Assembly (NCBI GenBank): GCA_964568775.1
Contig: CAZMQW010000002.1
Coordinates: 4,354-68,353 of the forward strand
DNA: 64,000 nucleotides
Source: an uncultured Candidatus Saccharibacteria bacterium
GTDB taxonomy: Bacteria > Patescibacteriota > Minisyncoccia > Minisyncoccales > MHMH01
Direction: 5' to 3'
Shown here: piece by piece, positions 37,449 through 61,867 of the stretch
How positions within the stretch are numbered: the first letter of the stretch is position 1
Layout: each line of letters starts with the position of its first letter
The notes under the pieces: model-generated
Database searches by the model: none
The model's input: only the letters and a program-made list of their open reading frames with translations
Told to the model about the DNA's origin: nothing
Position numbers and translations under genes: made by a program

Positions 37449-38186
37449 TTAAATATCAAATAATTGCCTAGCGTTCTTGGTGGTAATTTGGACTATCTCT
37501 CCATGGCTTAATCCTTTTAGCTTAGCAATCTTTTCGGCCACGTATTTTACATAAATCGGCTCATTTCTACCTTGCTTCGGCGGGGGGGTTAAAAACGGAC
37601 AATCGGTCTCAATTAAAATTCTACCCAGAGGTGTCTTTTTAATAATTTCATCTAAAGCAGTCTTGAAAATTATTCCGTTGAACCCCAAATAAAATCCCAT
37701 ATCCAGATATTTTTGCGCCTGCTCCCAGGTGCCGGTAAAACAATGGATAACTCCTCTCAGTTCAGAATTTATAATTTTCAAAAGATCTTGATGAGCCATC
37801 CGACAGTGAAAAATAATCGGCAGGTTCAACTCTTTGGCCAAATCAAGCTGTTTTAGGAAGACTTCCTTTTGTTTTTCCTTGAACGAAACGTATTCTTCCT
37901 TATAATCCAAACCTATCTCGCCGACAGCTACCACTTTCTTTGACTTGGCTAATTCTTTGTATTTCTCAACGTCAAACCCATCTTGGGCGTAAATCGGATG
38001 CAGGCCGATAGCAGCATAAACGCCTTCTTTGTATCTTTCGGCTATCTCCACCGCTCTTTTGCTGCTGGAATACTGTGAACCAGCGTTTATTAGCCAAACA
38101 TCATTATCAAGCGACCGGCGAATGACCTGGTCGGCATCCTCTCTAAAAGCGCTAAAATTCAAATGAGCGTGGGTATCAATAAACAT
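37449..38186 (-). CDS. tatD: TatD-family metal-dependent DNase
   Basis: 245 aa. N-terminus MFIDTHAHLNF plus conserved His/Glu/Asp ligands (GLH, HC). metG-tatD linkage is conserved. Confidence 0.9.
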   Translation of the reverse strand: MFIDTHAHLNFSAFREDADQVIRRSLDNDVWLINAGSQYSSSKRAVEIAERYKEGVYAAIGLHPIYAQDGFDVEKYKELAKSKKVVAVGEIGLDYKEEYVSFKEKQKEVFLKQLDLAKELNLPIIFHCRMAHQDLLKIINSELRGVIHCFTGTWEQAQKYLDMGFYLGFNGIIFKTALDEIIKKTPLGRILIETDCPFLTPPPKQGRNEPIYVKYVAEKIAKLKGLSHGEIVQITTKNARQLFDI

Positions 38187-39568
38187 TAGATTCTCGGGAA
38201 TAATGATTTACTTTTTTTAGCCTTCAGTTGTTTAAGAATTTTCTTAGAGGTTTCGGGCAAAAATGGCTGGAGAAGCCCCACTATTTCTTTTACGACAAAT
38301 AATAAATTGCCGATAACCTGCTGGTTTTTAGTTTCCCAGAGTTTTTCTTTTTCAATATATCTATCACAGAAGCCAATCAATTCCCAAACCGTAGCCAAAG
38401 CTTCATTAAATTTAAATTCATTTAAGGCTTCCTTGTATCTACTGCTAATTTTGTCAATTTCCTGTTTAATCTCGCCGGCCGGCGTCTGAATTTTAGCTTT
38501 TTTAGCCAAAGTTATTAATCTGGCCACCAAATTACCCAACCCACTGGCCAAATCACCGTTATATCTTTCTTTGAACTTATTATAAGTAAAGTCGCCGTCC
38601 TCGGTCGAAGGGATCTCTCGCAAAAGAAAATATCTAACCGGATCGGCACCGTATTCTTTGACTAATTCAAACGGGTCAATCACGTTGCCCAGGCTTTTTG
38701 ACATTTTCTGTCCGCCAGAAGTCAGATAGCCGTGGACAAAGATGGTTTTTGGCAATTTGAAACCGAGCGCCAAAAGCATGGCCGGCCACAATAAAGCGTG
38801 GAAACGAAAAATATCTTTGCCGATGCAATGAACGTCAGCCGGCCAGTATTTTTTGGGATAGAGATAATTTATCAAAGCCTCAAACCAAATATAAATAATC
38901 TGGCTGTTATCTTGAGATACGGGCACTCCCCACTGCAAATTCTCTTTCGCCCGGGAGCAGCTGACATCTTCTATTCCCTGGCTGATAAAACTTAAAATCT
39001 CGTTTTTCCTTCCTTCCGGGACAATCCTCAATTCTCCGCTAGCTATCTTTTCTTGAACCTGGGAAGCATATTTAGAAAGTTTGAAGAAATAATTCTCTTC
39101 TTCAACAATTTCCGGCTTCTGCTGGTGATTGGGACAAAGACCGTCAACCAAATCTTTTTCTTTGATAAAAGCTTCGCACCCCACGCAATAAAGACCTCTG
39201 TATTTCTTTTTGTAGATATCGCCCTTCTTTTGAAGCTCCCCCCAGACTTTATGGACGTTGGGCCAATGCTTTTTTCTGTCAGTGGTCCTGATAAAATCAT
39301 CGTTAGACAAATTGAGAACTTTGGTCAGATTTTTGAATTTTCCAGCTATTTCGTCGGCAAATTTAGCCGGGCTTTTGCCAGCATTTTTAGCCGCTTTGAC
39401 GACTTTCTGGCCGTGCTCGTCCGTCCCGGTCAAAAAGAAAACATCCTCTCCCAAAAGCCGGTGATAACGGGCGGTCACGTCAGCCTGAACCAATTCCAAA
39501 GCAAACCCGATATGAGGAGGGGCGTTGGTATAAGCTATACTGGTGGTGACGTAAAATTTGTTTTTCAT
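38186..39568 (-). CDS. metG: methionyl-tRNA synthetase (minimal form, no C-terminal tRNA-binding appendix)
   Basis: 460 aa. HIGH region AYTNAPPHIGFALE, Zn knuckle CVGC/CPNH and KMSKSLGN. Confidence 0.95.
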   Translation of the reverse strand: MKNKFYVTTSIAYTNAPPHIGFALELVQADVTARYHRLLGEDVFFLTGTDEHGQKVVKAAKNAGKSPAKFADEIAGKFKNLTKVLNLSNDDFIRTTDRKKHWPNVHKVWGELQKKGDIYKKKYRGLYCVGCEAFIKEKDLVDGLCPNHQQKPEIVEEENYFFKLSKYASQVQEKIASGELRIVPEGRKNEILSFISQGIEDVSCSRAKENLQWGVPVSQDNSQIIYIWFEALINYLYPKKYWPADVHCIGKDIFRFHALLWPAMLLALGFKLPKTIFVHGYLTSGGQKMSKSLGNVIDPFELVKEYGADPVRYFLLREIPSTEDGDFTYNKFKERYNGDLASGLGNLVARLITLAKKAKIQTPAGEIKQEIDKISSRYKEALNEFKFNEALATVWELIGFCDRYIEKEKLWETKNQQVIGNLLFVVKEIVGLLQPFLPETSKKILKQLKAKKSKSLFPRI

Positions 39569-41750: not shown

Positions 41751-43016
41751 TTATTTTCTTAATAATTTCTCGAATTTGCTTTTGTCTTTAAACGGGCCGA
41801 TTAAAGCCAAGTTCAGTTTCTTTGGTTGGAAAATGTCCCGGGCAACTCTCAAAATATCACCCCCCGAAACTTTATCAATTTTAGCATAGATTTCCTTGGG
41901 GGTTAATATCTCTCTTTTAAAAAGCTCCTGCTCGCCGTAAAAAGAAGCCAAAGCGTCGGAAGACTCCAAAAGCAAAGCCATTTTTCCTTTGATGTAGTCT
42001 TTGGCTTTTTTCAGTTCGGCCGGGGGCACTGTTTTCTGAGAAATTTTTTTGTATTCTTTCAAAATGGTAGTGATTGCTTTTTCAACGTTCTTGTTGTCAA
42101 CTCCGGCCCGGGTCATTAAAAAGCCTGTGTCAGGATTGGCATTAGTCTCGGTTTTAACGTAATAAGCCAAACCTAGTTTCTCTCTCACCTCCATAAATAA
42201 TCTGGAACTCATCATCCCGCCCAGAATAACTCCCAAAACTTCCTGGGCATATCTTTGCGTCTGAAAAAGATTGTAAGAGCGGCCGCCCAAACAAAGATGG
42301 GTCTGGTCGGTCTTTCTCTCATGGATCAGACACTCGGGCAAAGTCTGCCGTTCAATGACTTTTGGTTTTTTAAGATAAGGGCTGGCGCCGATAGAGACGA
42401 AGATCTTTTTGGTTTTAGCAACGACTTGAGAGGCCTTAATGTTGCCAGCCAAACAAACAATGGTGTTCGAGGCCACGTACTGGTTTTTCATATATTGGAG
42501 CAATTTCTGGCGGTTGATTCGGCTGACACTCTTTTTAGTCCCGGCAATATCCCAGCCGGCCGGCTGGTCGCCGTAAAGAAGCTTCATCCATAAAATCTCC
42601 ACAAAGGCCATGGGATTGTCGTTGATCATATTTATTTCCTCAATAATCACGCCTTTCTCCTTCTGAGCTTCTTTTTCCGGCAAAATGCTGTTCAGAAAAA
42701 TATCGGAAACCCAATCCAAAGCCAAATCAAACTGGCCAGCCGCCACTTTAGCAAAATAGCCGGTATAGTCTTCGCCGGTAAAAGCATTATAAATGCCCCC
42801 GATCTTATCCAAGGTTTCGGCTATTTCCAGTTTATCTGGCCTTTTCTTGGTGCCTTTGAAAAACATGTGCTCTAAGAAATGGGAGATGCCTGAAATCTCC
42901 TTTGTTTCGTATTTGGAGCCGGTGCCCACCAAAACCAAAACCGTCACAGCCTGGGTACCTTTTTGCGGAACGGTAATAATTCTTAAGCCGTTGGGTAGAG
43001 TTGTTTTTTTAAACAC
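41751..43016 (-). CDS. M16-family zinc peptidase (insulinase-like)
   Basis: 421 aa with inverted zinc motif HFLEHMFFKGT (HxxEH) and the downstream Glu region. Confidence 0.8.
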   Translation of the reverse strand: MFKKTTLPNGLRIITVPQKGTQAVTVLVLVGTGSKYETKEISGISHFLEHMFFKGTKKRPDKLEIAETLDKIGGIYNAFTGEDYTGYFAKVAAGQFDLALDWVSDIFLNSILPEKEAQKEKGVIIEEINMINDNPMAFVEILWMKLLYGDQPAGWDIAGTKKSVSRINRQKLLQYMKNQYVASNTIVCLAGNIKASQVVAKTKKIFVSIGASPYLKKPKVIERQTLPECLIHERKTDQTHLCLGGRSYNLFQTQRYAQEVLGVILGGMMSSRLFMEVREKLGLAYYVKTETNANPDTGFLMTRAGVDNKNVEKAITTILKEYKKISQKTVPPAELKKAKDYIKGKMALLLESSDALASFYGEQELFKREILTPKEIYAKIDKVSGGDILRVARDIFQPKKLNLALIGPFKDKSKFEKLLRK

Positions 43017-44296
43017 GGAATTAAATCTTTAATTTTAACTCTTTTTTGTTTCATAGTGTCCCTGTCTCTCAAAGTCAAATCATTCTTCTTTAAACTGTCG
43101 AAGTCAATCGTTAGAGCATAAAGTGTGCCGATTTCGTCCTGCCGACGATAGCGGCGGCCGATCGAACCGACCTCGTCGTACTGAACCGTAAAATAAGGCT
43201 TCAATAGTTTATAAACTTCTTTGGCTTTTTTGACTATCGCCGGCTTATTCTTGACCAAAGGCAGAACAGCGATTTTTATCGGCGCTAAGGTTTTGTAAAG
43301 TTTCAATAAAATTTCCGTTTCTTTGGTAGCCTCGGTCGTTTTGGTCCGGCCACCCTTAACTTCACCATAAGCGTCAACCAAGAAAGCCAGGAAAGAACGA
43401 TCGGCTCCGCCCGAAGTCTCGATAATGTAGGGAATGTAGCCTTCGTACTTGAAGTCTTGGCCGGAATGTTTGGCGTGGTTGGACAAATCATAATCTCCCC
43501 GGTTGTGCACTCCTTCTATTTCCTGCCAGCCAAAAGGAAACTTGTATTCGATGTCCACCTGCCGCCGAGCGTAGTGAGCTCTTTCCCTAATCGGAATTTC
43601 CCTGGCTCTCAGGTTGGTTTTTTTGATACCCAAACTTAAATACCATTTCATTCTCTGCTGTTTCCAATAATTAAAGAATTTGTCGGCCTGCTGGGGAGAA
43701 CAGAACCATTGCATTTCCATTTGCTCAAATTCGCGCGTCCGGTAGATAAAATTGCCGGGCGTTATTTCGTTTCTGAAAGCTTTGCCGATTTGGGCAATGC
43801 CGAAAGGAATTTTAAGCCTCATTGAGTTGAGCACGTTTTCGAAATTGACGTAAATTCCCTGGCAGGTCTCCGCCCTCAAAAAAGTTTCGGACGTCTCATC
43901 CTCCACCGAACCGACGAAAGTTTTCATCATTAGGTTGAATTTTCTCGGTTTGGCCAAACTACCCCCGCATTTGGGGCATTTGTTTTTGACATCGTCTGAC
44001 TTGAATCGCTTGTGGCATTTACTGCACTCGACCAATTCGTCGGCAAACCCAGCCGTCAAATGGCCCGAAGCCTGCCAGACTTTCGGCGACATCAAAATGG
44101 CTGCATCCAGTCCGACAATATTGTTTTGTTTTCTGGTCATCTCTCCCCACCAGGCTTTTTTAATGTTGTTTTTCATTTCCACGCCCAAAGGGCCGAAGTC
44201 GTAGCACGACCCGAAACCGCCGTAGATTTCCGAGGAAGGGAAAACAAATCCTCTTCTTTTGGCTAGAGATACTATTTTTTGCATTAAATCATCCAT
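42983..44296 (-). CDS. glyQS: glycyl-tRNA synthetase, dimeric class II type
   Basis: 437 aa. N-terminus [33 protein letters not shown]. Class II motifs and C-terminal anticodon-binding domain. Confidence 0.9.
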   Translation of the reverse strand: [437 protein letters not shown]

Positions 44297-46596: not shown

Positions 46597-46992
46597 CTAA
46601 AATCCTTTTTTCATAGCTTCCATGGTTTCAATTTCAACCCTTAATTCCTTTTTCTTAGTGGGAGATGCCCAGGCCATTTCTTTTTTCTTTTTATTTATCA
46701 GCCTGCTGAAATCTGTCGTTGAAAGGCCGTGGGACCGCTTTGATTCGGTCCGCCACTTATTAATAAGGTCTACCCGTTGCTGTTTGCCAAGTTTTTTTGC
46801 GCTTAACTTAGAGTAACTTTTATACGGAGCTTTTCTAGCGGACTCTCTCATTTGGACGAAAGAACGATAGCCCTTTTCTCCCAAAATACCGGGCTTAGGG
46901 GTTGGTTTTGGTTGGGTTGCCGGTTTGCTAGAAACTGGCCTTAATACTGGTCCCGGTTTCGGAGAAGGTCTTCTAAAAAATGGGAAAGCCAT
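46597..46992 (-). CDS. hypothetical basic protein with Pro/Lys-rich N-terminus
   Basis: 131 aa (PSPKPGPVLRPVSSKPATQPKPTPKPG...). Sits between ileS and recO in the same operon. No family recognised. Confidence 0.35.
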   Translation of the reverse strand: MAFPFFRRPSPKPGPVLRPVSSKPATQPKPTPKPGILGEKGYRSFVQMRESARKAPYKSYSKLSAKKLGKQQRVDLINKWRTESKRSHGLSTTDFSRLINKKKKEMAWASPTKKKELRVEIETMEAMKKGF

Positions 46993-46996
46993 AAAC

Positions 46997-49900
46997 TTAA
47001 AGTTTTTTAATTGCTAACCAGATTGTTTTTTGGTCGACCTTTAGTTCGCGCTCAACGTCAAACACTTGTTTTGGCTTGTCGCCGGCCATCAAGTCTTTGA
47101 CTTTGGCTTCTTTAAGGATAAATTTCTTATTTCTAATTAAAATCTTGTTCAATTCGTCATCACCAGAATATCTGACCAAAATCTTGTCTTTTGGTTTGAG
47201 GCCGGCCTTTTTTCTCATCTCTTGGATTTGGCGGATAACCTCTCTGACCATTCCCTCCTCTCTCAACTCAGGCGTGATCTTGGTTTCCAGTTTAAAGCTT
47301 TTGCCGAACGTAATCTTTTTAACGTTGATTTCCTCTTTAACCAGTCCAACCAACTCTCGGTCAAGTTTTTCCCTGATTTGTAAACACGGCAGCGGCTGAC
47401 GGACTTTGATGCCGGCTTTGGCCCGGGCTGCTAGAGCTGTTGTTACTATATCCCTCGCTTTTTCCATTCTCCGGTTTAACAATTGACTGATTAATCTTTT
47501 GTCTGCTTTCGGCCAATCTGCCAGATGACAGCTTGGTTTTTTGGTTAAGTCCTGGAAAATCCTTTCGCTTAAAAACGGTACAAATGGTGCGGTCAGCTTG
47601 CTTAAGGTTGATAAAACATGACTCAAAGTGCCCGAAGCCTCCCATAGCTCTTTTGTTGTTTTGGGCTTCTGGAACCTGCGGCGGGCTCTTCTAATGTACC
47701 ACAAAGAAAGATCGTTAATAACAAAACCTTCAATTGCCCGGGCCGCGCCGGTCACGTCGTATTTGTCTAGTTTGTTGGCAACTATCTGAATCAGTTCATT
47801 TAATTTAGAAACAACCCATTTGTCCAGAATGTGCTGGGATTTAAAGGTTGCTTTCTTTTGGCCGTAAGTTTCAAAAAACAAATAGCTGTTCCAATAAGTC
47901 AGAATGAATTTCTTTAGGGCTTCGGCCAAATCTTTCTCGGCAAAAAGCTTAACGTCGCCGGGCTGGTTAACAGTGTAAAAATACCAGCGGGCGGTGTCTG
48001 CCCCGTATTTTTCAACAATATACCAAGGGTCAAACACGTTGCCCTTTGACTTGGACATTTTTTCTCCTTTTTCGTCCAAAACATGGCCCAGGGAAATGAC
48101 GTTCTTGTAAGGAGTGCCACGGCCCAGCAGAGTTGATACAGCCAGCAGGGTATAAAACCAGCCTCTGGTCTGGTCAATCGCTTCGGAAATATAGTCGGCC
48201 GGAAACTGAATATTCTTTTCAAAAGGATAATGATCTTGGGCAAAGGGCATGGCCCCCGAGTCAAACCAGCAGTCAATAACTTCGGGCACTCTTTTCATCG
48301 AACCAGAACATTTAGGACATTTGAACTTCACTTGATCAATGTAGGGCCGGTGAAAATCTAGTTCCATGTTTTCGTTATACGGTAAAATTTTAAGCTCTAG
48401 CTTTCTTGGTTCTCCTGTTTTTATTTCTTTATCTCTAGTAATAATTTCAACGAATTTTTCCGTACTATACCCATTAGTTAGCTTCTCTAGTAAGGTAATC
48501 GGCCGCTTATGGCTGATAATCAAAATATTCTTACCCTGATATTTTCTATCTATTTCTCTGACAAAATCATACATTCTTTTTTGTATCTCAATATAATTTT
48601 CTCCTTTGGGTGGCGCTATTTGAAATCTTATTGAATAATGTTCTAAAGGAGTCAACTTTTTTCCTTTATTCCAAAATTTACCAATATCTTTTAATGGTTT
48701 TTCGTTAAAAATACCGACACCGATATCTCTAAGCCGTCTATCGAGTTTTAATTTCAATCCTAGTTCCTTCCTAATGATTTCTGCGGTTTGTTTTGTTCTT
48801 AGAAGATCTGAAGAAAAAATCAAATCAATTTTTTCTTTTCTTAGTTTTTGGGCTGCTCGTTTAATTTGTAATTCGCCTTTTTTTGTTAAAGGCGAATGGA
48901 TCTTTTCTGGCCAACAACTAGAAAGTTTCTTTATATTAATTAAAGACTCTCCGTGTCTCAAGAAGAAATATTTATTACCGGTAAATTTCTGAGAAAGTAA
49001 ATCCTGCTTACCACCGATAACTTCCCGATGATCGCATTTCTGGCACTGCCAGATAGGCAAAGGCGTACCCCAATACCGTTCGCGGGAGAAAGCCCAGTCT
49101 TTCAATTTTTTCAGCCATTCGCCGAACCTGCCTTCCTTTAAATGAGCCGGCACCCAGTTAATTTTTTGGTTATTGGCAATCAGCTGTTTTTTAACTTTCT
49201 GCATGTTGATAAACCAGCTCTCTTTGGCGTAATAGAGCAGAGGCGAATGACAGCGCCAGCAAAAAGGATAATCGTGGGCGTAAAGCTCTTCCTTGTAAAG
49301 CAAACCTCTTTTTCCCAAGTCAGCTATAATTAAAGGGTCAACGTCTTTAACCCATTTGCCGGCCCAGTTTTTAACCTCTTTTTTGAATCTGCCTGTTTCG
49401 TCAACATTTAATAAGACCGGCAAGTTGTTCTTTTTTGCCACCTGCATATCGTCTTCGCCAAAAGCCGGCGCCAGATGAACTAAACCGGTTCCCTCTTCCA
49501 AGGAAACGAAGTCGCCACCCACGACAAACCAGGCTTTTTTATCCGGTTTGGCGAATTTGAACAACGGTTCATATTTTAAGCCTAACAACTTACTTCCTTT
49601 GAACTGTTCAATGATTTTGCATCCTTCGCCCAAAACAGCCAGCCTTTCTTTGGCTAGAATCAACATTTCTGCGCCGACTTTGACTTTAACGTAAGTGAAT
49701 TTGGGATTGACGGCCACAGCCACGTTACCCGGCAAAGTCCAGGGCGTGGTCGTCCAAACCAACAGATAAGTATTGGGTTTTATCTTGAATTTAACATAGA
49801 CCGAAGTCTCTTTAATATTTTCGTATCCCAAGGCAACCTCGTGCGAAGACAGAGAAGTGCCACACCTAGGACAATAAGGCACCACTTTGTAATCTTGATA

Positions 49901-50398
49901 TAAAAGCCCTTTTTGGTGGAGCTGTTTGATAATCCACCATAAAGTCTCTATGTAGTCGTTATTATAGGTAATGTAAGGATGCTCCATATCCAGCCAAAAA
50001 CCGATCCTTTCGGTCAGTTTCTCCCAGTCCTGCTTGTAAAGCCAGACTGATTCTTTGCATTTTTTATTGAATGCAGCTATGCCGTATTTTTCAATGTCTT
50101 TTTTGCTCTTGAGCCCCAGTTTTTTCTCAATTTCCAACTCCACTGGTAAGCCGTGAGTGTCCCAGCCGGCTTTTCTCAGCACCCTGAAACCCTGCATGGT
50201 TTTGTAGCGGCAGACAATATCCTTGAAAACCCTGGCCAGAATGTGATGGATGCCGGCTTTGGCATTGGCGGTCGGGGGTCCCTCGTAAAACACAAAATTG
50301 CGAGCTTTGGCCCGTTGTTTTATGCTCTTCTTAAAAATTCCAGCGTCTTTCCAATATTTTAATATCTTCTCTTCTAGTTTCGGAAAATTAACTTCCAT
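46997..50398 (-). CDS. ileS: isoleucyl-tRNA synthetase carrying an inserted histidine-phosphatase-like domain
   Basis: 1133 aa with HIGH-region, CP1 editing domain, WAFSRERYWGTPLPIW, a KMSKS-like motif (KMSKSKGN) and anticodon-binding domain. An extra ~200 aa between residues about 470 and 680 is not found in canonical bacterial IleS. Confidence 0.95.
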   Translation of the reverse strand: MEVNFPKLEEKILKYWKDAGIFKKSIKQRAKARNFVFYEGPPTANAKAGIHHILARVFKDIVCRYKTMQGFRVLRKAGWDTHGLPVELEIEKKLGLKSKKDIEKYGIAAFNKKCKESVWLYKQDWEKLTERIGFWLDMEHPYITYNNDYIETLWWIIKQLHQKGLLYQDYKVVPYCPRCGTSLSSHEVALGYENIKETSVYVKFKIKPNTYLLVWTTTPWTLPGNVAVAVNPKFTYVKVKVGAEMLILAKERLAVLGEGCKIIEQFKGSKLLGLKYEPLFKFAKPDKKAWFVVGGDFVSLEEGTGLVHLAPAFGEDDMQVAKKNNLPVLLNVDETGRFKKEVKNWAGKWVKDVDPLIIADLGKRGLLYKEELYAHDYPFCWRCHSPLLYYAKESWFINMQKVKKQLIANNQKINWVPAHLKEGRFGEWLKKLKDWAFSRERYWGTPLPIWQCQKCDHREVIGGKQDLLSQKFTGNKYFFLRHGESLINIKKLSSCWPEKIHSPLTKKGELQIKRAAQKLRKEKIDLIFSSDLLRTKQTAEIIRKELGLKLKLDRRLRDIGVGIFNEKPLKDIGKFWNKGKKLTPLEHYSIRFQIAPPKGENYIEIQKRMYDFVREIDRKYQGKNILIISHKRPITLLEKLTNGYSTEKFVEIITRDKEIKTGEPRKLELKILPYNENMELDFHRPYIDQVKFKCPKCSGSMKRVPEVIDCWFDSGAMPFAQDHYPFEKNIQFPADYISEAIDQTRGWFYTLLAVSTLLGRGTPYKNVISLGHVLDEKGEKMSKSKGNVFDPWYIVEKYGADTARWYFYTVNQPGDVKLFAEKDLAEALKKFILTYWNSYLFFETYGQKKATFKSQHILDKWVVSKLNELIQIVANKLDKYDVTGAARAIEGFVINDLSLWYIRRARRRFQKPKTTKELWEASGTLSHVLSTLSKLTAPFVPFLSERIFQDLTKKPSCHLADWPKADKRLISQLLNRRMEKARDIVTTALAARAKAGIKVRQPLPCLQIREKLDRELVGLVKEEINVKKITFGKSFKLETKITPELREEGMVREVIRQIQEMRKKAGLKPKDKILVRYSGDDELNKILIRNKKFILKEAKVKDLMAGDKPKQVFDVERELKVDQKTIWLAIKKL
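48390..48975 (-). other. histidine phosphatase (PGAM-like, branch 1) domain inserted in-frame within ileS
   Basis: IleS residues about 476-670 contain LRHGESLIN (RHG catalytic His), LTKKGELQIKRAAQKL, SSDLLRTKQTAEII (SxLxRAxxTA) and ILIISHKRPI (second catalytic His). Both flanks are IleS catalytic-core motifs. Confidence 0.7.
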
Positions 50399-50401
50399 AA
50401 A

Positions 50402-51925
50402 TTACATTTTTTCCGGGGCAGAAATACCCATTAAAGATAAAGTGTTTTTCAAAACGGTTTTAGTGGCTAAAACTAAAGCTAGTCGGGCTTGGGTCAAATT
50501 TTTATCTTCGGAAATAACCCGGCAGTCACGATAAAACTGGTGGAAAGCTGTAGCTAAATCCGCAGCGTATTGGGGCAAGCGCTGCACCTGGTAATCGCTA
50601 GCAATATCTTCAACAATCTCTGGAAACCTGACTAATTGCTTAATGAGTTTTAGTTCGCTTGAATGTTTTAACAGATTCAACTGAGACTTGTTCTCTTTTA
50701 CTTTGGCTTTACGTAAAATACTACAAATGCGGGCATGGGCGTATTGGACATAATAGACCGGATTCTTTTCTGACTGAGTTTTGGCCAAATCCAAGTCAAA
50801 CTCCATGTGGGTGTCCGAAGACTTCATTAAATAAAGGAACTTCACCGCATCCAGGCCTGCCTCATCCACCAGCCACTCCAGGGTTACCACCTTGCCTGCT
50901 CTCTTGGACATTTTTTCTCCTTTCAGTCTGACGACCTGGGTTATTAAAATTACAAGTTCTCCCTGATAGCCCAAGATTTTGGCCACGGCTTTTATTTTGC
51001 TGACATGGCCCTGGTGATCAGCTCCCCATATGTTGATGATTTTGTCATATTTCTTATCAAACCTGTCTTTATGGTAGGCAATGTCAGGAAGTAAATAAGT
51101 AAAAGCGCCGGTTTCCCTGACCACTACCCAATCTTTAACGTCCCCATACTTGGATGTTTTCAGCCATTGGGCATTGTCTTTTTCGTAAACCAAGCCTTTC
51201 TTTTTCAAAAAACTATATATCTTATCTATTTTGCCAGTTTGATATAAATCCTTTTCTTCTGAAATCCAGAAATCAAACTTAATATTCAGTTTCTTTTCAA
51301 TGAAGTTCTTAATGTCTTTCTGTACTTCTTTAGCTAATAATACGCCGGCCTCTCTTTCATTTTTACATTTGTTGAATTTCAATCCCTTGATCTTTCCCTC
51401 CAGATATTCATTTAAGTAAATCCTCCCCTTACCTAAAGCGGTCTCGCCCAAGGCTCTAATCTGGGAACTGTTTTTGGCGTCATTAGCGTAATGCTGGCGG
51501 GAAACGTCAAACCCGGCTTTTTCAAAAACATTAGCCAGAGTTTGGCCGAAAAAAGCTCCTCTTCCGTGGCCGATATGCAGCTGGCCGGTGGGATTGGCGC
51601 AGATGAATTCAATATTTATCTTTTTTCCTCGGCCGATATTAAGCTGGCCGAACTTTTCTTTCTTTTTCAAGATTTCTCCAACTTGTTTCTGTAAGTATTC
51701 TTTGGAAAGGAAAAAATTAATAAAACCGGACCCGGCTATCTCAACTTTCTCAAATAAATCAGACTTAAGGTTTTTGACTATCTCAGCGGCCGGCTTTTTA
51801 ATTTGCAGGGCGATATTGGTTGAATAGTCGCCGTAATTTGCTTTTTCATGACTCTCCAGCCGAATTTCGGCCGGAGATTGTCCGGTCGCTTTTTGAATTA
51901 GTTTAAGGATTTCCTGCCTCAGCAT
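50402..51925 (-). CDS. argS: arginyl-tRNA synthetase
   Basis: 507 aa. HIGH motif ANPTGQLHIGHGRGA, KMSKR-like motif and the N-terminal add-1 domain. Confidence 0.9.
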   Translation of the reverse strand: MLRQEILKLIQKATGQSPAEIRLESHEKANYGDYSTNIALQIKKPAAEIVKNLKSDLFEKVEIAGSGFINFFLSKEYLQKQVGEILKKKEKFGQLNIGRGKKINIEFICANPTGQLHIGHGRGAFFGQTLANVFEKAGFDVSRQHYANDAKNSSQIRALGETALGKGRIYLNEYLEGKIKGLKFNKCKNEREAGVLLAKEVQKDIKNFIEKKLNIKFDFWISEEKDLYQTGKIDKIYSFLKKKGLVYEKDNAQWLKTSKYGDVKDWVVVRETGAFTYLLPDIAYHKDRFDKKYDKIINIWGADHQGHVSKIKAVAKILGYQGELVILITQVVRLKGEKMSKRAGKVVTLEWLVDEAGLDAVKFLYLMKSSDTHMEFDLDLAKTQSEKNPVYYVQYAHARICSILRKAKVKENKSQLNLLKHSSELKLIKQLVRFPEIVEDIASDYQVQRLPQYAADLATAFHQFYRDCRVISEDKNLTQARLALVLATKTVLKNTLSLMGISAPEKM

Positions 51926-60620: not shown

Positions 60621-60844
60621 AAAATTACAAATCCCCTTGACTTGGGGGATTAACTGATTTCTTGAATTAATATTTGTTAACCTCCTCAGCAGACTAGTTT
60701 ACCAAATGCTAAAACGCCCCAAATATTTTCAAATTGACCGATTTTCTCTTGATATTCTTTTAACATTGCTGTTAGCTTATTTTAGGAAAAATAAGGGTAT
60801 TGTCAAGGCCGGCGAGAAAACCTAAAATAAAGAATACATTCATG

Positions 60845-61867
60845 ATTGAAGTCGACGGTTCATATTTAGAGGGGGACGGACAGATTTTAAGAACAGCTGT
60901 CTCTCTAGCGGCAGTTACCAAACAGTCCTGCCGTGTTTTTGATATTAGAAAGGGCCGGCCCGAACCTGGTTTGAGGCCGCAGCACCTTTTGGGTATTAGG
61001 GCCTTAAACGAATTTGCCAAAGGCAACTTAGAAGGGGATGAGTTAGATTCAACTGAAATTAAATTCTCCCCCGGCGATATTGAGCAAAGTTTAACCTCGC
61101 TTAACATTAAAATTGAAACAGCCGACAGCATCACTCTAGTGCTGCAAGCGTTAATTTTGCCGGCTTTATTCGCTCCCTCGCCTGTCAAAATAGTTTTTGA
61201 CGGCGGGGCAACTGACACTTTTTTCTCACCGACGATTGATTACTCCCGTTATGTCTTAATGGAAACCTTAAGAAAGTTGGGGGTTAAAATGGAAATAAAC
61301 ATTTTAAAAAGAGGCTACTATCCGGCTGGCGGAGCAAAGGTTGAGATAACTGTTTTCCCTGCCAAACTGAAAAATATTAACTTAACCGAGCGAGGACAAT
61401 TAAAAAGAATCCTGGCTATCTCTGGAGCTGCCCTATCGCTTAAAGAGAAAAAAGTGGCTGAAAGACAACTGGCCGGGGTAAGAGAAGTTTTGGGAAAATT
61501 AAAGCTGCCTCTTGAGGAAAAAGCAGAATATTACCAGGCCCAATCGCCCGGCAGCCAGATTTGCCTGATAGCTGAATTTGAAAATACAATCATCGGCACT
61601 GACAACCTGGGCAAGCTGGGTAAAAGAGCAGAAGACATCGGGAAAGAAGCGGCTTTGGAGCTTTTAAAGGAACAAAAAAGCCAAGCAGTATTAGATAAGC
61701 ACTTGGCTGATCAAATTTTACCTTATCTGGCTTTGGCTCCGGGCAAATCACAGGTTACTGTTTCGGAAATAACCAATCATTGTAAGATTAATATCTGGGT
61801 GATTGAAAAATTCGTAAAAGGGAAATTCAAAATAGCCGGTCAGCAAATATCCTATTCAGCAAGTTAA
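60845..61867 (+). CDS. rtcA: RNA 3'-terminal phosphate cyclase
   Basis: MIEVDGSYLEGDGQILRTAVSLAAV... matches RtcA N-terminus, including the His-adenylylation region. The ORF is open from 60800 but the Met at 60845 aligns with the family start. Confidence 0.85.
   Translation: MEVDGSYLEGDGQILRTAVSLAAVTKQSCRVFDIRKGRPEPGLRPQHLLGIRALNEFAKGNLEGDELDSTEIKFSPGDIEQSLTSLNIKIETADSITLVLQALILPALFAPSPVKIVFDGGATDTFFSPTIDYSRYVLMETLRKLGVKMEINILKRGYYPAGGAKVEITVFPAKLKNINLTERGQLKRILAISGAALSLKEKKVAERQLAGVREVLGKLKLPLEEKAEYYQAQSPGSQICLIAEFENTIIGTDNLGKLGKRAEDIGKEAALELLKEQKSQAVLDKHLADQILPYLALAPGKSQVTVSEITNHCKINIWVIEKFVKGKFKIAGQQISYSAS

Follow-up and report, generated by a model that had tools for sequence, protein, structure and literature searches.

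A histidine phosphatase domain nested in the isoleucyl-tRNA synthetase of Patescibacteria, alternating with a free-standing gene

The 64,000-nucleotide stretch of contig CAZMQW010000002.1 analyzed here (the window), from an uncultured Candidatus Saccharibacteria bacterium, encodes an isoleucyl-tRNA synthetase (IleRS; gene ileS, protein IleS) with a complete histidine phosphatase domain nested in frame inside it. The phosphatase lies between the two zinc knuckles, CQKC and CPKC, of the CP3 domain of a type-2 IleRS. The nested phosphatase is an old and widespread feature of Patescibacteria, where it alternates with a free-standing gene. A reading of the window from sequence only had described the fusion as an IleS architecture it did not recognize; we likewise found no description of it in the searchable literature, and the fusion turns out not to be confined to this genome. 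We put at roughly 0.65 the probability that the role of the phosphatase is tied to the tRNA-charging machinery and not to an unrelated metabolism. The protein and its parts are laid out as follows.

46997..50398, minus strand: ileS, type-2 isoleucyl-tRNA synthetase with nested phosphatase; a single uninterrupted open reading frame (ORF) of 1133 aa
49001..50398, minus strand: IleS N-terminal part, residues 1–466, with the first Rossmann half, the CP1 editing domain, CP2 and the start of CP3
50243..50254, minus strand: GIHH, residues 49–52, read from the sequence as the G/AXHH form of the class-I HIGH motif
49034..49045, minus strand: first CP3 zinc knuckle, CQKC, residues 452–455 (C452 and C455 invariant, 93/93)
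48974..49033, minus strand: N-side linker, residues 456–475, DHREVIGGKQDLLSQKFTGN, conserved in fused homologs (model pLDDT 91–95)
48389..48973, minus strand: histidine phosphatase domain, residues 476–670, branch 1, PhoE/CobC/PspA-like
48950..48958, minus strand: RHG (R481, H482, G483), with His482 as predicted phospho-acceptor nucleophile
48797..48799, minus strand: R534, predicted second phosphate-pocket Arg, in SSDLLRTKQTA (invariant in 93/93 fused and 120/120 free homologs)
48725..48727, minus strand: D558, predicted general acid position, in RLRD (usually RLRE), aligning with the PspA Glu
48509..48511, minus strand: H630, predicted second catalytic His, in ISHKRP (invariant in 93/93 fused and 120/120 free homologs)
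48359..48388, minus strand: C-side linker, residues 671–680, ILPYNENMEL (P673 and D681 nearly invariant; pLDDT 93–94)
48308..48319, minus strand: second CP3 zinc knuckle, CPKC, residues 694–697 (C694 and C697 invariant, 93/93)
46997..48358, minus strand: IleS C-terminal part, residues 681–1133, with the second Rossmann half, the anticodon-binding domain and the type-2 C-terminal domain

The extra segment is a complete histidine phosphatase domain within one ORF, as the earlier reading had claimed. Pfam His_Phos_1 (PF00300) matches residues 478–649 with E=1.3e-31 (110.2 bits against a gathering threshold of 21.7), covering profile positions 2–166 of 194. The segment had been placed at 48390–48975, which corresponds to residues 475–670, and the motifs RHG, LLRTKQ and ISHKRP and both flanks were all found in the expected places. 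A profile of the module compared with solved structures retrieves PspA 4IJ5 (2.6e-24) and PhoE 1H2E (4.5e-23), along with 1EBB and CobC 6NRU. Modeled in isolation, the domain reaches a pLDDT of 94.4 and a pTM of 0.90, and Foldseek matches this model to PhoE 1H2E (TM 0.75, rmsd 2.6), GpgP 4QIH (TM 0.81) and CobC 6NRU. Structure prediction had been proposed as a check on whether the insert is autonomous: the isolated domain folds confidently into a PhoE/CobC-like structure and sits in peripheral CP3. Homology and modeling together indicate that the insert is an autonomous PhoE/CobC-like branch-1 domain.

The module shares its fold, its size of about 195 aa and its catalytic set with PhoE (Bacillus stearothermophilus 1H2E/1EBB), CobC (6NRU, 6E4B), PspA (4IJ5) and GpgP (4QIH/6S2Q), with profile E-values of 1e-17 to 1e-24 and Foldseek TM scores of 0.73–0.81. 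Unlike them, it falls below all NCBIfam equivalog cutoffs, has its own CWPEK motif, which follows the RHG loop, and is nested in or located beside IleRS. Membership in named functional families was rejected on scores of 82.9 against a cutoff of 225 for dPGM_arch, 79.1 against 162.9 for ribazole_cobC, 64.2 against 350 for PspA and 63.6 against 261 for GpmB. By these comparisons the insert is a member of the histidine phosphatase superfamily that belongs to none of the characterized functional families. The cap region is the most variable part of the module.

The predicted catalytic set is complete (R481, H482, N488, R534, D558 and H630). R481 and H482 never vary, whether among the fused homologs (93/93) or the aligned free ones (118/118); the residue at 558 is acidic throughout, with E in 65 and D in 28 fused sequences and E in 107 and D in 13 free ones (172 E and 41 D in total). 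Such invariance looks like the signature of an enzyme kept active, in fused and free forms alike. Given that R481, H482, R534 and H630 do not vary and that only E or D occupies position 558 in either set, the insert very probably works as an active phosphomonoesterase, which agrees with the earlier expectation of a probably active phosphatase. In the predicted reaction, whose chemistry is well grounded in the family, His482 would take the terminal phosphoryl group held by R481, R534, H630 and N488, Asp558 would protonate the leaving group, and water would then resolve the phospho-histidine, freeing phosphate. No second phosphatase copy was found in the window.

The host protein is assigned to ileS as a whole by the NCBIfam model TIGR00392 (924.3 bits, cutoff 621.4). 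Pfam finds two tRNA-synt_1 stretches around His_Phos_1, the first covering residues 11–466, followed by Anticodon_1 (859–1003) and DUF5915 (1036–1132). The motifs WAFSRERYWG (435–444), DFHRPYID (681–688), WFDSG (711–715) and KMSKS (780–784) are present, as are, judged by sequence alone, the CP1 editing motifs WTTTPWTLPGN and GTGLVHLAPAFGEDD, which are conserved among homologs. A full-length AlphaFold2 model has a pLDDT of 86 and a pTM of 0.78, with the insert and both linkers above 90, and its best Foldseek matches are PmIleRS2 8C8W (E=8.5e-85) and 8C8U and Thermus thermophilus 1ILE; IleRS1 structures score far lower. The ileS cutoff, the class-I motifs, the fold and the DUF5915 C-terminus place the window IleS in type 2 (IleRS2). 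Within GIHH, none of 119 fused homologs departs from G49 and H51; at the same position some insert-less relatives have GIHH or GVHH, and one (L001) has the canonical HYGH. The G/AXHH motif in IleRS2 has been linked to mupirocin hyper-resistance (PMC10485003). Two special classes of IleRS were tried and rejected for the window protein: the MupA/MupB mupirocin-resistance type (about 850 bits against an exception-model cutoff of 1900) and ileS_w_GNAT (NF040702; score 316 against a cutoff of 1999, with no GNAT Pfam match in the protein).

The sequence-only reading had put the insertion in the catalytic core. It is in the catalytic domain, but the model and the sequence place it in a peripheral loop, the zinc-binding CP3, outside the Rossmann core proper. 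CP3 of T. thermophilus IleRS binds zinc, and CP3 topology differs among IleRSs (PMC7191050). The flanking elements had been expected to be a few tens of residues apart in ordinary enzymes, and this holds: canonical type-2 IleRS has about 18–40 residues there. Compared with Priestia megaterium IleRS2 (8C8U), 18 residues become 219 in the window protein, a net insertion of about 200 aa, and the insert-less close relative L001 has about 25 residues at this position. These lengths rule out that canonical IleRS2 already contains an equivalent segment, and none of the structurally matched type-2 IleRSs (8C8W, 1ILE) carries such a domain. At both junctions the sequence returns to conserved CP3. The window enzyme thus shares TIGR00392, KMSKS, TTTPWT, the zinc-knuckle CP3 and the type-2 C-terminal domain with solved IleRS2 enzymes (8C8U/8C8W, 1ILE), with GIHH placing it in the G/AXHH subclass; unlike them, it has about 200 extra residues in CP3 that form a second, predicted catalytic domain.

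The same architecture is found in 120 of the 120 best full-length homologs (1108–1220 aa), all with PF00300, drawn from NCBI, JGI, ENA and Logan and labeled as Nealsonbacteria, Paceibacteria, Parcubacteria and similar. The exact protein of the window is among them, in NCBI, as P0121, encoded on a contig of 95 kb. At least 431 loci in GTDB species representatives encode the module. Databases name the homologs merely 'isoleucine--tRNA ligase' or 'class I tRNA ligase family protein'.

We considered whether the fusion is an artefact: a chimera made in assembly, an insertion decaying as a pseudogene, an intein-like or mobile element, or a spacer without catalytic function. The sharp break in composition, with a GC content at third codon positions (GC3) of 0.26 against 0.50, would fit such an origin. 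A chimera is ruled out by the agreement of all 120 homologs from independent assemblies (119 besides the window's own), the uninterrupted ORF and the exact protein in NCBI; misassembly is removed as an explanation because independent assemblies and GTDB representatives share the fusion. Decay or a dead spacer is opposed by the unbroken ORF and the invariant catalytic residues. An intein or mobile element was rejected, as no Hint, endonuclease or transposase Pfam domains were found, border repeats are short and at chance level, and conserved CP3 sequence resumes at both junctions. The chance of an artefact is, in our judgment, negligible.

Used by itself as a query, the insert matched 120 free-standing proteins, each about 198 aa long and 54–70% identical to it. 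Their genes are placed between argS and an insert-less ileS, often overlapping the ileS start. Of the best 80 loci in species representatives, fusions account for 42 and a partial fusion for 1; in 36 a separate phosphatase gene precedes ileS in the same orientation, and a single locus lacks an ileS nearby. The free gene is within about 110 nt of ileS or overlaps it in 25 of these 36 loci and is separated from it by inserted genes in the other 11; a conserved third gene between the two was ruled out, since the intervening genes are heterogeneous. On a tree of the IleS backbone (insert columns removed, 75 taxa), the fused and free states change 2–3 times, compared to about 24 times with shuffled labels, and the window belongs to one clade of 38 fused sequences. 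The gene order around ileS is itself shared: the window and its sister lineages have in common the block L20/IF3/SmpB, argS-[phosphatase]-ileS-small ORF-recO-DUF7619-class II aminoacyl-tRNA synthetase. The immediate upstream neighbor in the window is:

50402..51925, minus strand: argS, an ORF directly upstream of ileS with a 3-nt gap; in sister lineages (contexts L001 and L005–L008) the free phosphatase gene lies between the two

argS is immediately upstream in 29/30 free loci and 20/30 fused loci. At one free locus (L085 5549-6532), an ORF between the phosphatase and ileS starts like an IleS N-terminus (MSIDFPKIEKKILKFWQENKI) and then diverges; it may represent a 5' end of ileS that was interrupted or rearranged. 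At another (L005 1313-2819), argS is replaced upstream of the phosphatase and ileS by a bAvd and reverse-transcriptase pair, resembling a diversity-generating retroelement, with a large target-like gene.

The module behaves as an exchangeable cassette. Between the window protein and P0122, the backbone is 90% identical in the N-terminal half and 76% in the C-terminal half, whereas the inserts are just 50% identical; for L030, the backbone is 75% identical to that of the window and the insert 53%. Conversely, the free protein of L011 shares 70% identity with the window insert; between the two IleS proteins identity is only 50%. The higher the backbone identity among the top 120 homologs, the lower the insert identity tends to be (r=-0.46). 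The GC3 of the window insert is 0.26 against 0.49–0.52 in its flanks, the low-GC3 block spanning residues ~465–670. These comparisons suggest that the window module was laterally replaced from lower-GC relatives. A general GC3 dip of the insert was ruled out (median difference -0.02 over 42 fused loci); the dip recurs in a few lineages (L010, L083, L060 and L040). Lateral replacement does not fully account for the pattern: the inserts of the window and its close relative L010 share just 71% identity, although third positions favor AT in both.

CP3 is not the only position at which IleS accommodates the phosphatase. Among the 150 nearest cluster representatives (of 1.84 billion), 78 have IleS motifs and 63 are small free proteins. 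We mapped insertion sites on the insert-less IleS L006, in which SRxRxWG is at 440, the first knuckle at 454, HRP at 483, WFDSG at 510 and KMSKS at 585. Most cases, the window included, fall in site A (~469–481, CP3); site B (~521–537) lies between WFDSG and KMSKS, and site C (~652–664) immediately before the anticodon-binding domain. Tandem phosphatase pairs are also found inside CP3. Proteins with sites A, B or C or with a tandem pair all pass the ileS equivalog cutoff, and the pattern recurs in independent assemblies.

In IleS of the Gracilibacteria/Peregrinibacteria/Peribacteria type (1200–1860 aa), sites B and C hold mixes of His_Phos_1, GNAT, P-loop kinase and serine hydrolase. In P0458, two tandem HAD phosphatases with intact DxD motifs stand in place of the histidine phosphatase, and in P0459 the phosphatase adjoins a P-loop kinase, a module that the window protein lacks. 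P0475 has a homologous kinase; the family it matches best is L-seryl-tRNA(Sec) kinase (PSTK; E=4e-10, 39.6 bits against a cutoff of 290), and among solved structures it comes closest to Pnkp1, part of an RNA-repair complex (E=7e-4). Further along the same lines, P0397, P0409, P0448, P0458, P0459 and P0475 (1378–1753 aa) have GNAT, AAA_33/Zeta-like kinase, Ser_hydrolase, HAD or DUF559 endonuclease modules, which join or replace His_Phos_1 at the same two sites. Next to insert-less Gracilibacteria-type ileS genes we observed a YbaK-type tRNA_edit gene directly downstream in one case (L091 8109-8585) and an adjoining Ser_hydrolase gene in another (L090 8332-8841), the latter of the same family that is nested within the IleS of P0448.

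Partners other than IleRS are few. In P0267 (L092 5001-7070), the phosphatase is at the C-terminus of ArgRS in the same syntenic block, with ileS and the small ORF missing and recO next. Rare C-terminal fusions of the same phosphatase clade involve TsaC/Sua5 and QueC (P0290, 387 aa; P0389 / L093 3361-5100, 579 aa); the TsaC and QueC fusions account for one and two 90%-cluster members, respectively. TsaC/Sua5 belongs to the t6A pathway and QueC to the queuosine pathway. P0247 (1161 aa), P0344 and P0364 lack synthetase motifs and are strings of two to four His_Phos_1 domains in tandem. Some IleS forms of ~895–980 aa (P0271, P0297, P0313, P0342 and L083 30-2714) have the phosphatase at ~260–470 and a short N-terminal part; they may have lost part of the N-terminal/editing region or be split or mis-started genes.

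We tie the phosphatase to the charging machinery because it is nested in frame at different sites, is replaced by a non-homologous HAD phosphatase and is fused to ArgRS. For the substrate, our tentative candidate is a 2'- or 3'-phosphate (or 2',3'-cyclic phosphate) at the terminal adenosine of tRNA, or an equivalent free nucleotide, a choice we hold to be possible and no better than that. Of the roles that the sequence-only reading had suggested, tRNA 3'-end phosphates and nucleotides both stay in play on our evidence, which does not favor one over the other; its third was a regulatory role. Removal of the phosphate, with the 2',3'-cyclic form opened first, would free the 2'-OH required by a class-I synthetase, and tRNA end-healing would thus be coupled to charging. 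In Gracilibacteria-type enzymes, modules resembling polynucleotide kinase (PNK) or PSTK, together with the GNAT and hydrolase modules, would widen the role to an acceptor-end surveillance platform. A kinase paired with a phosphatase is the classic arrangement for polynucleotide end-healing, as in T4 Pnkp. Pointers in this direction are the kinase beside the phosphatase, whose best matches are PSTK and Pnkp1 (weak, under cutoffs), and the GNAT, serine-hydrolase and adjacent YbaK-type tRNA_edit proteins, which are enzyme types with known aminoacyl-tRNA substrates. A broader possibility, which we think unlikely, is that IleRS, occasionally ArgRS, serves as the platform for an unrecognized layer of surveillance or repair with the tRNA acceptor end or aminoacyl-tRNA as its target. 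Its constant core would be a histidine or HAD phosphatase, to which some lineages add a PNK/PSTK-like kinase, a GNAT or an esterase. If true, the de-blocking of phosphorylated tRNA ends, or another phosphate-dependent step, would be obligatorily coupled to charging in bacteria with reduced genomes.

Several observations weigh against a role in charging, and against tRNA ends in particular. The kinase similarities to PSTK and Pnkp1 are far under the family cutoffs. The nearest solved structures are all small-molecule phosphatases with a capped pocket (PhoE, GpgP, CobC, a riboflavin-pathway histidine phosphatase and TIGAR), and we know of no branch-1 histidine phosphatase that acts on RNA ends. 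At least three positions in IleS, the C-terminus of ArgRS and a separate protein argue against a precise hand-over geometry; TsaC and QueC, which are not tRNA binders, suit a small-molecule substrate better as rare partners; and generic repair of tRNA ends leaves the strong preference for IleRS unexplained. Since the argS-phosphatase-ileS-recO block is syntenic as a whole, the free gene owes its place beside ileS in part to inheritance, which keeps this proximity from counting as independent evidence of coupling.

That last point is the starting position of one rival, in which a housekeeping phosphatase with a metabolic role apart from charging sat ancestrally between argS and ileS, and its fusions to neighbors are neutral or serve merely for co-expression in streamlined genomes. 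Inheritance of the L20/IF3/SmpB, argS-phosphatase-ileS-small ORF-recO block across the clade would account for adjacency, the ArgRS fusion, simplest of all, is a read-through between neighbors, and the fold, the closest relatives (generic broad-specificity phosphatases) and the variable cap are all in keeping with it. An in-frame move into the middle of an essential neighbor gene, however, is no simple read-through, and nesting occurred at at least three sites and in two deeply separated branches of Patescibacteria. The fused or free state has also been stable for long (2–3 changes over 75 taxa), cassettes are swapped laterally yet always at ileS, a non-homologous phosphatase occupies the same slot, and the linkers are conserved and confidently modeled. 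We therefore regard hitch-hiking as rather improbable. A second rival, about as unlikely in our view as the surveillance platform, has the phosphatase hydrolyze a small phosphorylated molecule made or bound at adenylate-forming sites, such as pyrophosphate (PPi), a nucleotide monophosphate or an inhibitory phosphorylated adenosine derivative, with tethering raising the local phosphatase concentration. All fusion partners found (IleRS, ArgRS, TsaC/Sua5 and QueC) convert ATP to AMP and PPi; several of the small-molecule structural neighbors act on nucleotide-like substrates (CobC, the riboflavin-pathway histidine phosphatase and PhoE); and the HAD superfamily, the substitute in P0458, also includes small-molecule phosphatases. 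Clearance needs no fixed geometry, which suits multiple sites, terminal fusions and a free form. To set against this, PPi hydrolysis by a branch-1 histidine phosphatase is without precedent to our knowledge, and AMP is normally recycled by adenylate kinase. Peribacteria are reported to encode an inorganic pyrophosphatase (PMC4736985), and a Peribacteria IleS (P0456) also carries PF00300; the literature on pyrophosphatases of the Candidate Phyla Radiation gave no decisive constraint. The TsaC and QueC fusions are rare, and clearance explains neither the co-embedded kinase, GNAT and hydrolase nor the choice of IleRS over the other 19 synthetases.

A self-defence attached to the target, in which the phosphatase and the GNAT, kinase and hydrolase modules inactivate IleRS inhibitors or toxic isoleucine or adenylate analogues, would readily account for why IleRS is chosen almost exclusively. 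The G/AXHH motif, with its connection to mupirocin, suggests past selection by such inhibitors. Modification of antibiotics is a classic activity of GNATs, kinases and serine hydrolases, and aminoacyl-adenylate mimics of the microcin C system are detoxified by enzymes of the GNAT and hydrolase types. Yet the phosphatase, the most constant module, is the one without precedent in such a role, and none of the IleRS inhibitors known to us (mupirocin, thiomarinol, SB-203207 and reveromycin) has a phosphomonoester. The embedded kinase resembles PSTK/PNK and not antibiotic kinases, and fusions to ArgRS, TsaC and QueC do not fit; self-defence is a poor bet. Poorer still is a protein phosphatase acting on the synthetase itself, for example undoing phosphorylation of the KMSKS loop by HipA-like toxin kinases. 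Some branch-1 members (SixA, PGAM5 and Sts) are protein phosphatases, HipA/HipT toxins phosphorylate class-I synthetases near KMSKS, and all three insertion sites border the second Rossmann half, which bears KMSKS. The closest relatives in sequence and structure, however, are small-molecule enzymes and not SixA, PGAM5 or Sts, Paceibacteria-type loci have no conserved kinase partner, and the TsaC and QueC fusions are left unexplained, so that this reading is very improbable.

The comparative pattern resembles a natural Rosetta-stone experiment: fused and operonic forms, at least three sites in IleS, non-homologous replacement, and occasional fusions to ArgRS, TsaC and QueC. Taken together, these features speak for a phosphate-removal step that matters to tRNA charging in Patescibacteria. 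Aminoacyl-tRNA synthetases rank among the most thoroughly studied enzymes. A second, apparently active center of different chemistry, kept across hundreds of species inside the catalytic domain of one of them, is absent from their current picture. The finding bears on translation in episymbiotic, genome-reduced bacteria, on domain insertion into essential enzymes and, as these enzymes carry the GXHH hyper-resistance motif, on IleRS as an antibiotic target.

The component families, IleRS2 with G/AXHH and PhoE/CobC-like phosphatases, are already known; their nesting is undescribed in the searchable literature. No curated model or paper for a phosphatase-containing IleRS was found, and the same literature, including recent studies of IleRS evolution, yielded no description of a histidine phosphatase in IleRS, the alternation with an operonic gene, the multiple sites or the companion modules. 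The closest curated parallel is NF040702 (ileS_w_GNAT), likewise an IleRS with a foreign enzyme domain, and Gracilibacteria-type IleS combines GNAT with the histidine phosphatase. In the RNase H/acid phosphatase of the Rv2228c/RnhC type (NF005567), a CobC/PhoE-like phosphatase is attached to a nucleic-acid enzyme, and our insert matches its phosphatase half with E=3.9e-21; unlike that end-to-end fusion, the window domain is nested in a synthetase, and it scores 76 against a cutoff of 326. T4 Pnkp and bacterial Pnkp/Hen1 offer a functional comparison for P0459 and P0475, with kinase and phosphatase on one polypeptide, and for the HAD phosphatase of P0458. Here, by contrast, the phosphatase is usually of the histidine type and not a HAD enzyme or metallophosphoesterase, there is no ligase partner, and an RNA substrate is only proposed. 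As examples of architecture, the CP1 editing domain and the leucine-specific domain of LeuRS are likewise autonomous domains in a surface loop of the Rossmann-fold catalytic domain that leave the core undisturbed. Every member of the respective families has these domains, which target the aminoacyl moiety or tune catalysis, whereas the phosphatase is lineage-restricted and interchangeable with a separate gene.

Some neighboring genes of the window deserve mention. A 131-aa Lys/Pro-rich ORF with no Pfam match (46597-46992, minus strand) lies between ileS and recO, a position kept in relatives (108–142 aa). An RtcA-like ORF of 355 aa with the motif EGDGQILRTAVSLA (60800-61867, plus strand) is about 10.4 kb from ileS. 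The sequence-only reading had mentioned RtcA in connection with the phosphatase; an ORF like it is present in the window, but a linkage does not hold, given the distance of some 10 kb and the opposite strand. MetRS-like, class-II ProS/ThrS-like and ArgRS genes (38186-39568, 42983-44296 and 50402-51925, all minus strand) lie within about 14 kb of ileS and, with SmpB, IF3 and L20, make up a dense translation-gene neighborhood.

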